Made by a program: the position numbers and the translations under genes
Shown: in pieces, positions 58,060-64,000 of the stretch
Layout of the letters: every line of letters starts with the position of its first letter
Numbering within the stretch: the stretch's first letter is position 1
The notes under the pieces: model-generated
The model's input: only the letters and a program-made list of their open reading frames with translations
What the model was told of the DNA's origin: nothing
Databases searched by the model: none
From: an uncultured delta proteobacterium
GTDB taxonomy: Bacteria; Myxococcota_A; Polyangia; Polyangiales; Polyangiaceae
Assembly (NCBI GenBank): GCA_963696385.1
Contig: CAVOKF010000007.1
Coordinates: forward strand, 1,312,001-1,376,000
Direction: 5' to 3'
Length of the DNA: 64,000 nt

Positions 58060-58153
58060 CAAATCGGTTCGCCGATTCAGCGATAACGAACGCCCCTAAG
58101 ACGCGATATGTTTCCGCGCCCGCTTCCGCGGCTCTTCGTCGACCGACGCACTT
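58060..58153 (-). repeat. 110-bp repeat, copy E (left-type), cut by the host intron
   Basis: CAAATCGG...CCCCTAAGACGCGATATGTTTCCGCG...GCTCTTCGTCGACCG matches copy A. Confidence 0.88.
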
Positions 58154-58197
58154 GTCGAGTAGCCCCGGGCGCTTACTGGCCCCGGGGCCCTCGCCGG

Positions 58198-60199
58198 GTA
58201 GGGTCGAGGACTGGCGCGGTGGCGTGCAGGGGGGCCAATCTGTTTCCGTCCCTTTCGGTTGACGGTGCCTCACTTGCCTCTCCATCGCTCCGTTTCCAGT
58301 CCCCGCCTCGTCCAACGGAGCAGGCGGATTTCCCGCACTCCGCTGTCCTGCCAGCTTCGCGCCAAGGTTTATGGGACCTATCGTGCTGGGAGCGCTTTCG
58401 GCATGTCCTGCCGCGGAGCCACTCGGTACCCATTGAAGAGCCCGAGCGTTCCGTAGAGCCATGACCTACTCCACCTCTTCCAGCCGAAACCGGGCAGGTT
58501 CCGGGCACGCATCAGATGTCGCCTCACCTTCTTCTCCACCCAGTCCTTGACGAAGCCGAAGCATCGGCTCGAGTGACCCACTCGAAAGTATTGCACCCAT
58601 CCGCGTAGAATCGGATTGATAATCTGCACCACCCGCTCCACCGGCTGGGACTGAAAACGTCGGAACACGTCCTTGAGCTTGCGCAGCAGCGCCGTCCGTT
58701 TCTTGCGTTGCGGCGTCAAATGCGGACGCCATTCACCGCGGAGACTGCGGATGCGACGAAAGTCAAAGCCGAGAAATCCGAAGCTCTCGTCTTTCGAGAG
58801 GTCCACGAGTCGACTCTTGTCTTCGTTGATTTCCACGTGAAGTTTGCTGAATTCTTCCCGGAGTCTACGGTTGACCGCCTGCAGCAACCAGGCATGGCGT
58901 CGGTAGGCGTCCACGAGGACCACAAGATCGTCAGCAAAGCGCGCATATTCGACATATGCGTACTTGCCTTCGGCCGTGACCTGTTTGGCGCGCTCGAGCA
59001 TCCTATCGACCTCATTGAGGTACAGGTTGCTGAGCACGGGTGAAATTACCCCGCCTTGGGGAACTCCCCTCTTACCGGATGCTTTGAGAATCATCGACAG
59101 GAGAGTCATGACCGCATCGTCGTTCACGCGCTTTGCGACTTTTTCGAGCAACACATGATGCCGAACGTTGTCGAAATAGGCTCGCAAATCGATGTCGAGG
59201 ATCCGGGTCTTATTCCTGACGACGGCCTCCGCTACCCGGCGGACCGCGCCATGCTGCGACCGCTTCGGGCGGTAGCCGTAGGACCCCGGTTGGAAGTCAG
59301 CTTCGAAAATGGGTTCCAGAATGAGCTTGAGTGCCCCCTGGACCACACGGTCGCGGATTGCAGGTATCGAGAGGACGCGAGTTTTGCCCCCATCCTTCGG
59401 TATCGCTTTCCGACGGTTCCGCATGGGTCGATACTGATGCGAGACTAGTTCGTCCCGTATCTGCCCGAGGAACTTCTCGACGCCGCTTGCCTCGATGGCC
59501 TCGAAGGTGACGCCGTCGATACCCGGCGCTCCATCGTTCTGCTTAACCATCTCGTAGGCGGCCTCAATCGTTTCCGTCTTGCAGACGTGGACGTACAGTC
59601 CCCAGAAACGCCAGGTTGGTTCAGCCTTCGCCTTCGCGTATATCCTCCGTCTCAGGTCCTGCAGACTAATAGGCGCCTTTATCATATCGCCCCTGCCTTC
59701 CGTTTCGTAAGAGGAATTACCAACAGCAGGGCCGCTTCGCTCCACGGGCATTACCCCGCTTCGACGCTACTACCGGCCCCTCCGCCACCCTTTCGCCTTC
59801 GGCCGACTTCCCGGGGTTGCCGGTTATACGACCTACCTTTTTCCGTCGATTTCTCGTCGGGGCGAGGAGGGCTTCTCCAGTTTCCAGCGCGTTCTTGTCT
59901 CCGTGCCGTCGCTACCACCCCGCCGGAGCGGTCCACCACGTCAACCAGTTTGTGGTGTGCCGTGCTGCCTTCGCCCTCCGGTTGAGGGCTCGGCCTCCGG
60001 GGTTTCTCCTTTTCGGGGCCACCTCTGCGTTCACTTTCGTTACGGCCCGGGGACTCGCTCACCATCCTTGCGATGGCTTTGTCAGTGGGCTTTAGGTCAT
60101 CGATTTCTCTCCTTCCTACCACTCAAGCTACGAGGCCTCTGGTTCTTAGCCTCGGTGGGACTGGCTCCCACAAAACGCGCCAGCCTTAGCTGGACGCAC
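58198..60199 (-). mobile_element. Group II intron I3 (class F-like), inserted in domain V of intron H
   Basis: 5' GTGCG at 60199; its own domain V GCGGAGTGCGGGAAATCCGCCTGCTCCGTT; long domain VI ending GACCCTAC. Confidence 0.92.
58378..59685 (-). CDS. ltrA: Group II intron RT/maturase of I3
   Basis: [38 protein letters not shown]. Confidence 0.95.
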   Translation of the reverse strand: MIKAPISLQDLRRRIYAKAKAEPTWRFWGLYVHVCKTETIEAAYEMVKQNDGAPGIDGVTFEAIEASGVEKFLGQIRDELVSHQYRPMRNRRKAIPKDGGKTRVLSIPAIRDRVVQGALKLILEPIFEADFQPGSYGYRPKRSQHGAVRRVAEAVVRNKTRILDIDLRAYFDNVRHHVLLEKVAKRVNDDAVMTLLSMILKASGKRGVPQGGVISPVLSNLYLNEVDRMLERAKQVTAEGKYAYVEYARFADDLVVLVDAYRRHAWLLQAVNRRLREEFSKLHVEINEDKSRLVDLSKDESFGFLGFDFRRIRSLRGEWRPHLTPQRKKRTALLRKLKDVFRRFQSQPVERVVQIINPILRGWVQYFRVGHSSRCFGFVKDWVEKKVRRHLMRARNLPGFGWKRWSRSWLYGTLGLFNGYRVAPRQDMPKALPAR

Positions 60200-60793
60200 A
60201 ACCGGACAAGGAGATTTCCACCATCCGGCTCTTCCGCTGAGCTGGCTCGTGGGTTACGTCCCCCAGATTCGGACCTTGATGCGGGGACGCGGGAGAGGAA
60301 GACGCTGCAGAAGCTCGTCATACTTTTCCCAGGTGAGGTGCGCTTGTTGGCTCCGACGGCGGAGCCACTTATACCAAACTCGCCTCGTCTCTTCGGCAAA
60401 CAGAAGCAGACTGCGAAAGTTGCCGCTGATGCCGAAATAGTTGAAGTGACCTTGGATGCGCCTCGTGAGCGCGGCGTGCTGCTCCTTGACCGGAAGGTGT
60501 CGATGGCGACGACACCAGTCCGCGACGGCTTGAATCGACCGTCGTAGGCGCGCACTCCGTGTCTTGCACGTCATTCCCCATCGACCGCTTCGGGAGCGCT
60601 GCCAGTACAGCGTGAATCCCAGAAAGTCGAAGGTGGCCGGACCCTTGCCGCCAACTTGCTCCGCCGGCGGACGCCGGAAGGGCAAGAGGCGGGTCTTGTC
60701 CGGGTGCAGGGTCAGCCCGAAACGCCCCATCCGCTTTCCCAGAACGTTCCATCACACGCTCCGCGTCGTCCTGATGTTCGAATGTCATCACGA

Positions 60794-62672
60794 GGTGAGT
60801 AGGCTGGGGGAATTTCACCCCCAGCCTCTCTCAGAACCGTACTTGAACGTCTCCGCTCATACGGCTCCCATCATCCAACCGCCGGCTTCAGCCCCAGCAA
60901 CTGCCAGTGCGCGAAAAGCCGAGGCTCGCGGCGACCGATGCCTCCGAGCCAATGCTCAGCTCGGCGACGGTGTCGTCGCAGCCTTTTGAATTTCCTCATG
61001 GCCCAACGGACGAGCAATCCGTTGAAGTGTCGGAAGACCGAGTGCAGGGCAGACTTGTAGAACCGACCGTAGTACTGGATCCAGCCCCGAAGGACTGGGT
61101 TCCACATGCGTGCCAAGTCGTCGATGGCCTTGTCGCTCCGCAGAGGAATCCGCCAGCGTCGCATTTCCTGTCGCATCCGCTTCGCCGCGTCGTTGCTGAC
61201 GGCGGGGGTGAAGTTCACGAAGAACTTCCCCCGCCGATTCTTCGACCGGCGAGGACGGAACGTGTACCCGAGGAAGGTAAACTTCTCCTCGGGATAGCGC
61301 CCCTTCCTATCGTCATCTTTGCAGTAGACGATGCGCGTCTTCTCGGGATGCACTTCCAATCGGCAGTGCGCGAGTCGACGCTTGATGTTCGCCAGGACCT
61401 GCTGTGCTTGCTTCTCCGTCTTGCAGTGCGCCACAATATCGTCCGCATACCTCTCGAACGGCACGTCCGGATGCGTTGTGCGCATCCATTCGTCGAACGC
61501 GAGATGCAAGAAGATATTTGCCAGAAGAGGACTCGCTACCCCGCCTTGCGGAGTCCCCTTCGTTCGCGGTACCCGCGTGCCATCCTCCAGTTGCACGGGG
61601 GCTTCCAGCCACCGCTTTACATAGAGAAGGACCCACGGGCACGGCGTGTACTTGCCGACCGCGCGCATTATCAGCGCGTGGTCGAGGTTGTCAAAGAAGC
61701 CTCGGATGTCCAGGTCGATGACCCAGTCGTATCGCCAGCATCGCTGCCGGGTCGCCGCCAGAGCATCGGCTGCAGACTTCCGTGGCCTGTACCCATAGGA
61801 ATCGGGGTGGAAATGCGGCTCCACTTCCGGTTCCAGATACATCTTGACGACCGTCTGGGCGACCCGGTCTGAAACGGTCGGTATGCCCAGACGCCTCTCG
61901 CCTCCGTCTTTCTTCGGTATCGCTACCGACCGAACGGGCGGCGGGAAGTACGTTCCCGACGACATGCGATTCCAAATCTTATAGAGGTTGTTCTTCAGAT
62001 TCTTCTCGAACTCCTCGATGGACTCGGAATCGACTCCGGCCGCTCCGCCGTTCGCCTTCACCCGCTTATACGCTTCCCACACCGCCATTTTGGAAATGCT
62101 ATACGGCTTGGCTTGGCTCGGCGGCTCCTCCCGCTTCCGCGGTTGACCGTCGATACAAGCCGAATGACGCGACCCCCTCGCTCCATCGGGTTTCCCCGGC
62201 TTCTCCGCTACTACGGGCCGCTCCGCCCCTGTGCCTCGCATCGGTACTCTCATCCTCGTGGGGCCTCCACTTGGACTTCTCCCTTAACATCGAGGCGACA
62301 GGTTCCCACGTTCCACACAAGGGCCTGGTCTCGGTTCACGCCACCTTTATGCCGGATGCCGCCCAGGCCAGCTGCAGGTTCCTCCTGGGCTTGTCCCGGG
62401 CAAACGACTCGTCCCGGTTTTGACATCGTTCCTACGCTTTCGACACGTTTCCGGTGGTTCATTCGCTTCGTCTCCCGAGGCCTCACCTGACGCGATCATC
62501 GCCGCGCCTTTTCCATCGACGCGCACCACCCCGGCTCTTTACCGGAGCAGCTCGTGGTGGTTTGGAGCCGGTGCCTGCCGACCGACCCGAGGGGCCTACC
62601 CTCATCCCTTGTGCAGCAAGGCAGCGTTTTAGTTGACCATTTCGGTCTCCCTTCCGCGCCGTCGTGGCGCAC
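60794..62672 (-). mobile_element. Group II intron I2 (class D, RmInt1-like), inserted immediately after the YADD codons of H
   Basis: 5' GTGCG at 62672; domain V GAGCCGTATGAGCGGAGACGTTCAAGTACGGTTC; 3' end CCTACTCACC. Confidence 0.94.
60871..62253 (-). CDS. ltrA: Group II intron RT/maturase of I2
   Basis: KPYSISKMAVWEAYKRVKANGGAAGVD, GTPQGG, RYADD, PRLFAHW. True start probably near 62130. Confidence 0.95.
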   Translation of the reverse strand: MRVPMRGTGAERPVVAEKPGKPDGARGSRHSACIDGQPRKREEPPSQAKPYSISKMAVWEAYKRVKANGGAAGVDSESIEEFEKNLKNNLYKIWNRMSSGTYFPPPVRSVAIPKKDGGERRLGIPTVSDRVAQTVVKMYLEPEVEPHFHPDSYGYRPRKSAADALAATRQRCWRYDWVIDLDIRGFFDNLDHALIMRAVGKYTPCPWVLLYVKRWLEAPVQLEDGTRVPRTKGTPQGGVASPLLANIFLHLAFDEWMRTTHPDVPFERYADDIVAHCKTEKQAQQVLANIKRRLAHCRLEVHPEKTRIVYCKDDDRKGRYPEEKFTFLGYTFRPRRSKNRRGKFFVNFTPAVSNDAAKRMRQEMRRWRIPLRSDKAIDDLARMWNPVLRGWIQYYGRFYKSALHSVFRHFNGLLVRWAMRKFKRLRRHRRRAEHWLGGIGRREPRLFAHWQLLGLKPAVG

Positions 62673-63563
62673 AGTCGTCCGCATAACGCACGAGGTGAGC
62701 TTCCCCGCGCAGACGCGGCTTGACATCGCGCTCGAACCACAGGTCCAATACGTAGTGGAGATAGACGTTGCCGAGTATCGGCGAGAGCACGGACCCTTGC
62801 GCTGCGCCCGTGTCCGGCTCGGCGTATTCCGAGCCGTCGAGCACCCCAACGTGCAAGCACTTGCCAATCAGCCGCATCAGCGACCCATCGGCCACCCGAA
62901 TTTGGAGCATCTCCTTCAGCTGGGTGCGATCCAAGCTGTCGAAGAAGGACACGACGTCGGCCTCCAAAATCCAGCTCACCTTACCCTGATGCGCAATACG
63001 GTCGAGGGCTCGAATGGCGTCATGGGCACCGCGACCGGGCCGGAAGCCGTACGAGCATTCCAAAAAGTCCTGCTCGTATATCGCCTCCAGCACTTCGCGT
63101 AGGGCGTCCTGGACCAACTTGTCCTCGTACGCAGAAATCCCAATCGGCCGTGTCTTGCCCCTTTCCTTTGGGATGTGAACACGCCGGATTGGCTGATGGC
63201 GATACTGCTTCGCCACCAACCGCTCGTGCAGGCTTCGGAGATTTTCTTCCAGGGCCTGCCCGTACTGCTCCTTCGTGACCCCATCCACGCCGACCGCCGC
63301 ATCGTTGCGCATGCGCTTGTCGGCTCGCATCAAGGCGGGCACATCGATAAGATGTGCCAGCGAGTGGAACCGTCCTTCGGGCTCCCTTTTCGCTCGCTCC
63401 ACTACCTTCAATAGTTTCGGTGACATGTCTTCCAACGTCGATGCGTCGGGCATGGTTCCGTCCTGAAGTTCAACTCAGCACGGGCCGCCTTTGCTCGGCC
63501 GGGTCCGGGGTGCCAATCCGTTCCCCGACGTCCACGCTCGTATGCGGCCCTCCGACTCCCCCG

Positions 63564-64000
63564 CTTCAGCGGCGCCTTTGGAGTGATCCACTTCGGGTCA
63601 CCGAAGTGATCCACCCGTCGCGGGGATCGGGGTGTCAGCGGCGGCGGGATCGTGACCCACCCCTTGCTATCGGAAAGGGCGCGCGTCAGGGCCGGTGGCT
63701 CGCACCCGAGATGCTCGGCCGGGCGAAGGGGGGAACCGCCAAGACGCCGGTAGGACTCGCGAGCGCTCGGGCCCGCGGCTCAGTGCGGGAGTCCGGCTAT
63801 CAGAAGGTGTTGTCGTCGGTGGGATCGTGCGCGGGTGGCATCGCCGCTTCGCGGACGGCGTGGCGGTAGCGCCAGAGCGTTTCGCGCAAGGTGGCGGCCC
63901 TGCGGCAGATCGTGTGGGCGAGGAAGACGACAGGGCCTTGGTCGCGTGGCCTATGGAAGTCGTCGATGAGCGTCTGGTGCTCGGCCAAGAGCGCGTCGGC
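63564..64000 (-). mobile_element. Right end of a second, slightly diverged copy of IS21 element B (runs off the window)
   Basis: Reverse-complement match to ~39887-40323, including the accessory ORF tail AHDPTDDNTF. Confidence 0.93.

Follow-up and report, generated by a model that had tools for sequence, protein, structure and literature searches.

Within the window (the whole stretch of 64,000 nucleotides that was analyzed), a complete group II intron, I3, was found inside domain V (DV) of another group II intron, the host H. Comparison with homologs indicated that I3 and many of its relatives probably home into the DNA for the 3′ strand of other introns' DV, between the last two bases of that domain, and that their guides have been retuned to each host; we estimate the probability of this reading at about 0.88.

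The boundaries of I3 were given by an exact joint. In public contigs from three of the four runs compared, namely, both DNA runs (X10 and X7) and one of the two RNA runs (X15), position 58197 was joined directly to 60200, with 2002 bases skipped and no ambiguous letters; the I3 boundaries 58198-60199 are therefore fixed, and an unoccupied H exists as DNA. The joint in X15 was rejected as proof of I3 splicing because the empty form is also present as DNA. The ORF of I3 lies at the position of domain IV, its RT/maturase frame is intact, and its TIGR04416 score exceeds the cutoff (Table 1). The protein gave no NCBIfam match to an endonuclease family and was 48.6% identical to a g2 reference, B.th.I3 of pBMB67, and 35.3% identical to a g3 reference. 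The DV of I3 carries the catalytic triad AGC, and its RF00029 score falls below the gathering threshold because the DV is atypical and domain VI (DVI) is long. Introns of class F variety g2 are described in the available text of Toro & Martinez-Abarca (2013, PMC3552965) as having FADD, no endonuclease, an ORF of 430-447 aa, and a length of 1970-2006 nt, and I3 is alike in each respect (FADD in RT5, no D/En region, 435 aa, and 2002 nt). With 1 of 10 g2 members, 1 g3 member, and no g4 or g5 members as references, the I3 clade branched with the g2 intron of pBMB67, apart from the g3 reference (SH-aLRT, 85). The FADD motif, the size, and the 48.6% identity to the pBMB67 intron would put I3 within class F variety g2 or close beside it, and I3 may be described as a putative endonuclease-less mobile intron, group IIB-like, class F/g2-like, and active-looking.

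Table 1. Features of I3 and of its host H in the window
Feature	Position	Strand	Evidence
I3, complete group II intron, 2002 nt, GUGCG ... AC ends	58198..60199	-	two copies; empty joint from which exactly 2002 bases are missing
I3 domain I, Rfam RF02003 group-II-D1D4-4	60035..60173	-	111.3 bits (gathering, 49)
I3 EBS2 (AAGGAG), partner host -14..-9	60006..60011	-	6/6 Watson-Crick; family covariation
I3 EBS1 (AACCGGA), loop of Id3 hairpin	59977..59983	-	7/7 with host -7..-1; loop in consensus fold
I3 EBS3 (G), partner +1 C of 3′ exon	59915..59915	-	top mutual-information column for +1 base
I3 RT/maturase ORF, 435 aa, FADD motif, no endonuclease domain	58378..59685	-	TIGR04416, 366.7 bits (cutoff, 300)
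I3 own DV with non-canonical lower stem; TCCGTT at end of 3′ strand, followed by G	58313..58345	-	RF00029, 35.5 bits (gathering, 40)
I3 long DVI and 3′ end	58198..58312	-	fold; end conserved across homologs
Host H DV except last base; holds IBS2 (60208-60213) and IBS1 (60200-60206)	60200..60231	-	pre-insertion allele fold
Last base of host DV (IBS3, 58197), then host DVI to 3′ end	58154..58197	-	fold and empty joint
Host H RT/maturase ORF, interrupted by I2; one inserted base near 60747 compared with C6 copy	60254..63453	-	
I2, second nested intron, directly after the YADD codons of H	60794..62672	-	RF01999, RF00029; joint skipping 1879 bases; uninterrupted C6 copy
Remainder of H 5′ ribozyme; upstream of ~63565 replaced by multi-copy element	63454..63565	-	

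I3 lies between the last two bases of the DV of H. When the pre-insertion allele of H was rebuilt, it folded as a DV hairpin followed by DVI, and in the RF00029 consensus the last DV base of H, now 3′ of I3, closes the DV stem; with a complete I3 within another intron, the locus can be read as a twintron. A second copy of I3 (G000:C6:20199-22200) occupies the same position in another copy of H. The two copies of I3 showed 0 differences in 2002 nt, and their hosts differed at 10 of ~1485 positions. Identical I3 copies in diverged H hosts would be expected for recent separate homing, which this pattern suggests, and Mohr et al. read identical inner introns in diverged outer introns as recent separate insertions (PMC2882425); the identity could instead be due to assembly homogenization. 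That the nested arrangement as a whole arose by chance insertion or as an assembly artifact is extremely improbable: the region is repeat rich and the draft genome is in 8 contigs, but the same I3-to-host junction occurs in the second host copy and in public contigs (pieces from X10 and X7 extend from I3 to 60207), the empty allele is exact to the base, and 37 distinct flanks among the homologs share one register.

The copy of H on contig C6 has an intact 5′ end and an open ORF and contains I3 and no I2, and in X15 and X7 the loose contig ends at 63565 run on into intact H. In the window, the 5′ end of H has given way to a multi-copy element (63565-64000), of which there are at least 8 copies with 95-100% identity. 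H and I1 are presumably class E-like, and I2 is presumably class D-like. The I2-free copy of H reads YVDD (G000:C6:19590-19610), and both copies hit by I2 read YADD (window 62673-62690; G000:C6:40440-40460); the YVDD base change lies in the I2 target and may be an escape mutation. H ends beside a multi-copy repeat of ~90-115 bases (window 58060-58150; ~70 other places in the genome), and I1 sits, in the opposite orientation, at the opposite end of a copy of this repeat. In addition, two 3′ remnants of H (G000:C7:1434044 and G000:C6:105634) begin at the 3′ junction of I3, with ~400 unrelated bases before them; their breakpoint is ambiguous because related native sequence shows microhomology there, and they are at most possible traces of I3 activity.

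In the initial annotation, the loop of the hairpin GCCCT-CAACCGG-AGGGC was proposed to carry an EBS1, AACCGG (plus strand 59978-59983), perfectly complementary to CCGGTT in the host DV. Position, pairing, and covariation all bore this out and extended EBS1 to 7 nt (59983-59977). The hairpin corresponds to I3 nt 211-227, the 5′ splice site of I3 is immediately preceded by CCGGTT, the 3′ strand of the host DV, and I3 pairs with H at 7/7 EBS1, 6/6 EBS2, and 1/1 EBS3 positions. The EBS2 match is one base out of the register usual for the family, in which only 2 Watson-Crick and 2 G-U pairs of 5 would form. By sequence, EBS1 matches the conserved lower stem of DV, EBS2 the variable upper stem and bulge, and EBS3 the closing base.

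These pairings recurred across the family. In an unbiased scan of the first homolog set (6620 combinations of an exon position with a domain I column), the 11 pairs with the greatest excess of Watson-Crick pairing all belonged to EBS1 (7 pairs, I3 nt 217-223 with -1 to -7) or EBS2 (4 pairs, with -9 to -12). The EBS1/IBS1 covariation that had been put forward as a check was also strong over 36 distinct combinations, with a mean of 4.22 of 5 Watson-Crick pairs versus 1.66 on permutation (maximum of 2.36 among 10000; permutations here and below ignore relatedness) and at most 1.6 in shifted registers. In the full set, the seven EBS1 positions formed Watson-Crick pairs in 102, 91, 93, 92, 90, 80, and 81 of 103 loci, respectively. 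For EBS3, nt 285 was the column that covaried best with the +1 base, and the two formed a Watson-Crick or G-U pair in 60 of 66 loci. A single-sequence fold of the 5′ 520 nt of I3 was too weak to serve as evidence (z, -1.74), and an alignment fold was used instead. In this consensus fold of 40 sequences, the hexamer AACCGG is unpaired, in a loop of 9 nt closed by a 4-bp stem that shows compensatory changes; this places it inside the EBS1 loop and not outside it. EBS2 lies in an unpaired internal loop.

The conserved hexamer, although matched as first described, is not the whole address of I3; the EBS2 and EBS3 matches had been missed. The hexamer alone occurs 3511 times in the genome, and IBS1 alone was rejected as the address for this reason. 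The 13-base address of EBS2 plus EBS1 is matched perfectly at two places in the 6.94-Mb genome, both of them occupied, and with one mismatch at six, all of them empty. The earlier readings of the other DVs (TCCGTT in I3 itself, CCGGAT in I1, and ACGGTT in I2, with I1 and I2 unoccupied) were confirmed. The DVs of I1 and I2 each miss one EBS1 pair and match EBS2 at only 1/6 and 2/6 positions (the latter plus a G-U pair), and a better reason than EBS1 for their being empty is that EBS2 reads the variable upper stem and is tuned to H. An H-like remnant on contig C4, with a full IBS2 and one IBS1 mismatch, is also empty, which fits specificity yet shows that not every H-like DV is used.

Homologs were collected from the best 80 of 577 genome candidates and the best 79 of 593 metagenome candidates, with a further 13 loci from 401 same-class genomes and 4 plasmid stretches. 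Of 174 loci processed, 6 in the minus orientation were left out and 56 had no usable 5′ flank, leaving 112 with at least 40 flank bases; removal of one false boundary (L067) left 111 labelled loci, 8 of them without a parsed EBS1. Under a strict test (triad plus paired lower stem), 41 of the 112 readable loci, with 37 distinct flanks and including the second copy of I3 itself, were at the DV position, compared with 114 of 19000 (0.6%) for the null; the loci are the best-scoring candidates, so this fraction is no census. Among the 111 labelled loci, 5 more were DV-like by eye, for a total of 46. The other 65 comprised 6 located ~26 nt inside the 5′ end of another intron, 3 at other intron sites, and 56 elsewhere. 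The DV-homing loci were spread over many phyla and host intron types, and among the labelled loci DV was the commonest single target, though not that of the majority. The proposal that DV serves as a recurring safe target therefore stands for these 41 loci and not in the sense of one universal target, as EBS2 is host specific; likewise, the suggested survey of homolog flanks found split DV motifs in 41 of 112 loci, with 56 of 111 outside introns and 9 at other intron sites.

Several target groups outside DV were recognizable. The six insertions near intron 5′ ends (L027, L032, L033, L106, L130, and L140) formed a sub-lineage with an EBS1 common to all. One insertion (L101:963) interrupts the ORF of another intron in its C-terminal RT codons, with EBS1 matching at 6/7, and a second (L034:2489) lies in a domain III-like region, with EBS1 matching at 7/7. 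Members of a 17-row clade (e.g., L042, L043, L055, L135, L148, and L151) have targets that consist of a T-run, a short variable stretch, and a C at +1, resembling, on sequence, the ends of mobile elements.

In a quick tree of 110 rows, all 46 DV rows fell in one 86-row subclade (SH-aLRT, 89), where they were mixed with non-DV rows; no DV rows occurred in its sister clade, the 17-row clade, or among the four basal rows, to which the g2 reference belongs. When only DV-homers were considered, EBS1 formed a mean of 5.96 pairs with its target versus 4.95 ± 0.16 on permutation (27 distinct pairs), and EBS2 formed 3.56 versus 2.39 ± 0.15 (36 pairs); in each case, 0 of 20000 permutations reached the observed value. 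Sister rows had changed guide and target together (L001 versus L018; L057 versus L059 and L060), which suggests that guides are retuned to different host DV types even between sister taxa. Host DVs ending in GGAA (L001, L024, L048, L112, and L114) had invaders on separate branches of the tree with the same matching EBS1 and a G-rich EBS2.

Less probable, though not remote, is a reading in which g2-like introns simply drift by opportunistic retargeting among multi-copy mobile DNA, with DV as one of many sinks and no specialization. The interleaving of DV and non-DV rows in the tree would fit such drift, as would the guides that match the 6 sites 26 nt inside intron 5′ ends, the 3 in other intron regions, and the 56 elsewhere; moreover, both g2 references for which Table S2 of PMC3552965 names a locus lie in transposases. 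The confinement of all 46 DV rows to one 86-row subclade with one register argues against it, and the guides of sister taxa track DV variants instead of leaving DV. Drift of this kind is largely compatible with homing into DV by retuned guides and differs from it only in the degree of specialization claimed.

The hosts invaded at DV were diverse in coding content. Of the 37 DV loci with at least 600 upstream bases, host RT similarity was seen within 450 nt in 12 (the closest matches being I1, I2, the g3 reference, or g2 proteins) and was lacking in the remaining 25. A domain I match within ~1.1 kb upstream was found without an RT at 9 of the 20 DV loci scanned (L001, L008, L019, L024, L044, L045, L048, L057, and L059; several domain I types), which indicates apparently ORF-less hosts. 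Bacterial ORF-less introns have been called comparatively rare (in the text seen of PMC3245105). DV-based pipelines miss the outer introns of twintrons (according to passages of PMC8919778 and PMC4028801), and 25 of 37 DV hosts have no nearby RT; ORF-less introns may therefore be undercounted.

The divergent DV of I3 had also been proposed to protect it from self-insertion. Own DVs were recovered by a pairing search at 75 of 111 loci. Among 36 DV-homers, EBS1 formed a mean of 6.06 Watson-Crick pairs on its target versus 3.33 on the intron's own DV; it was weaker on the own DV in 35 of 36, and only L104 matched itself as well as its target. With its own DV, I3 would form 4/7 Watson-Crick EBS1 pairs, 3/6 EBS2 pairs in the H register or 4/5 in the usual one, and no EBS3 pair. 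Self-insertion is thus probably disfavored, and protection seems only partial. The own DV was not found to be a worse EBS1 match than other DVs of the family (permutation P, 0.30), and divergent own DVs were not found to be enriched in DV-homers (GGTT end in 13/40 versus 9/35; Fisher P, 0.61). Relatives also invade the family's own DVs: at L127, a relative (5′ RNA identical at 455 of 522 aligned bases) has split the DV of a full-length family member, and its EBS1 matches that DV at 7/7; at L142, a family DV is likewise invaded with a retargeted 7/7 EBS1; and the intron at L017 sits, at 7/7, in an ORF-deleted relative. The protection claim accordingly holds insofar as pairing is worse in 35 of 36 cases and falters on the clade-wide occurrence of the odd DV, the P value of 0.30, and the invasions by retargeted kin.

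Among own DVs, a canonical lower-stem end persisted in L159 alone of the 40 DV-homers and in two basal loci of the 35 others. The basal relatives L063, L134, and L163 keep this end, and it had become non-canonical, by compensatory changes, in 39 of 40 DV-homers and was non-canonical in 33 of 35 non-DV-homers (33/33 without the two basal rows), including the 17-row sister clade. One reading, which we regard as rather doubtful, is an arms race: selection would have favored the odd DV of the clade because it gave immunity to the clade's own DV-directed guides, and the guides would later have followed the DVs as they changed. The compensatory loss of the canonical end in DV-homers, its retention in the basal relatives, the stronger pairing on targets than on own DVs, the additional failure of EBS3 on the I3 DV, and the guides of L127, L142, and L017 retuned to family-type DVs would all be in keeping with it. 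The same odd DV, however, is carried by most non-DV-homers and by a sister clade that contains no DV-homer; parsimony puts the DV change before DV homing (branch support of only 89-90); own DVs pair no worse than other family DVs; and L159 homes into DV while its own DV is canonical. The kin invasions fit an arms race and also a history in which a DV change that came earlier was exapted and retargeting then took its ordinary course. We offer only tentatively, and as an unlikely extension of DV homing, the view that this widespread g2 clade lives as a hyperparasite on the catalytic core of group II introns and is in an arms race with it, its own DV having been remodelled by compensatory changes that let it evade its guides and the EBS1 of kin (L127 and L142) having then been retuned to the altered DVs. 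If it were true, parasite pressure would be acting alongside catalytic constraint in the diversification of the most conserved domain of the ribozyme; parasite-driven change in a ribozyme's catalytic domain thereby becomes a testable question.

By analogy with established group II biology, a lariat RNP of I3 would reverse-splice into the target DNA, and in the absence of an endonuclease the cDNA would be primed at a replication fork; DNA reverse splicing and fork-primed cDNA synthesis are described for IIB introns in passages of PMC8643678 and PMC2504315. EBS2 would make each element specific to one host lineage, which for I3 is H. I3 would then be transcribed together with H, and because it separates the host DV from the branch-point DVI by 2 kb, the host could splice or move only after I3 is excised; inner-first sequential splicing, of I3 and then of H, is predicted from the insertion site only. 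A host that moves after I3 excision would create a new empty DV site. The non-canonical DV of the lineage would be a poor target for guides directed at canonical DVs, and kin that retune EBS1 would get in. Reverse splicing into host intron RNA, with the composite reverse-transcribed and recombined into the genome, would make use of an RNA that is co-transcribed and whose DV is always present, but we judge this route very improbable: IBS1 is locked in the DV stem of the folded RNA, the family's guides have the same geometry at sites outside introns, and DNA targeting is the established route for the class (in the text available of PMC8643678).

No functional group II intron lacks a DV, whether or not it has an ORF, and one lineage can therefore live on nearly all intron types. 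Insertion into DV makes the splicing of each host dependent on the invader. The family also provides >100 natural guide-target pairs, with an EBS1 of 7 nt, for class F/g2 introns.

No description of homing into DV was found in the full-text literature searched, with subscription papers outside its reach, or in the passages seen of PMC8919778, PMC4028801, PMC3245105, PMC4244168, PMC7049729, PMC12584367, and PMC8643678. Bacterial twintrons have been described in RT codons, in ORF starts, and in domain I (in the accessible parts of PMC4424553, PMC2504315, PMC2882425, and PMC4649490). Twintrons and motif-homing introns are already known. The class F g2 loci listed in Table S2 of PMC3552965 are in transposases, non-coding sequence, or a hypothetical protein, never in DV, and the flank of g2 B.th.I3 (pBMB67) is likewise not at a DV. 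In Lycopodiaceae, cox1i1149g2 is an intron inside a near-identical relative, as occurs in the I3 family, but it belongs to plant mitochondria and its sites are in domains IV and I, not V (passages of PMC7049729). In Trichodesmium, the inner intron of Tr.e.I7/I8 lies in an essential part of the ribozyme, sequential splicing was shown in vivo, and selection for such insertion sites is stated as assumed; unlike the case of I3, it is a single locus in domain I with no homologous lineage (passages of PMC4649490). TeI3 in TeI4 of Thermosynechococcus resembles I3 in having identical inner introns in diverged outer ones and in the use of introns as safe, renewable sites, but the TeI3 inners are ORF-less, lie between the first two ATGs of the ORF, and are confined to one host family (from the portions seen of PMC2882425). 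Also similar in habit are the YADD-homing introns M.a.I5, UA.I3, P.l.I2, and Tourasse's B.th.I3 (an element different from the g2 B.th.I3 of the same name), which, like I3, lack an endonuclease and home by IBS1/IBS2 into a conserved intron motif that forms a perpetual site (passages of PMC2504315); intron arrays of this type occur in Methanosarcina (PMC4424553, in part), and I2 in the window has the same habit. I3 works similarly but stands outside that lineage by its target: YADD-homers target the active-site codons of the RT, whereas I3 targets the catalytic RNA domain of the ribozyme, which is present also in ORF-less introns.
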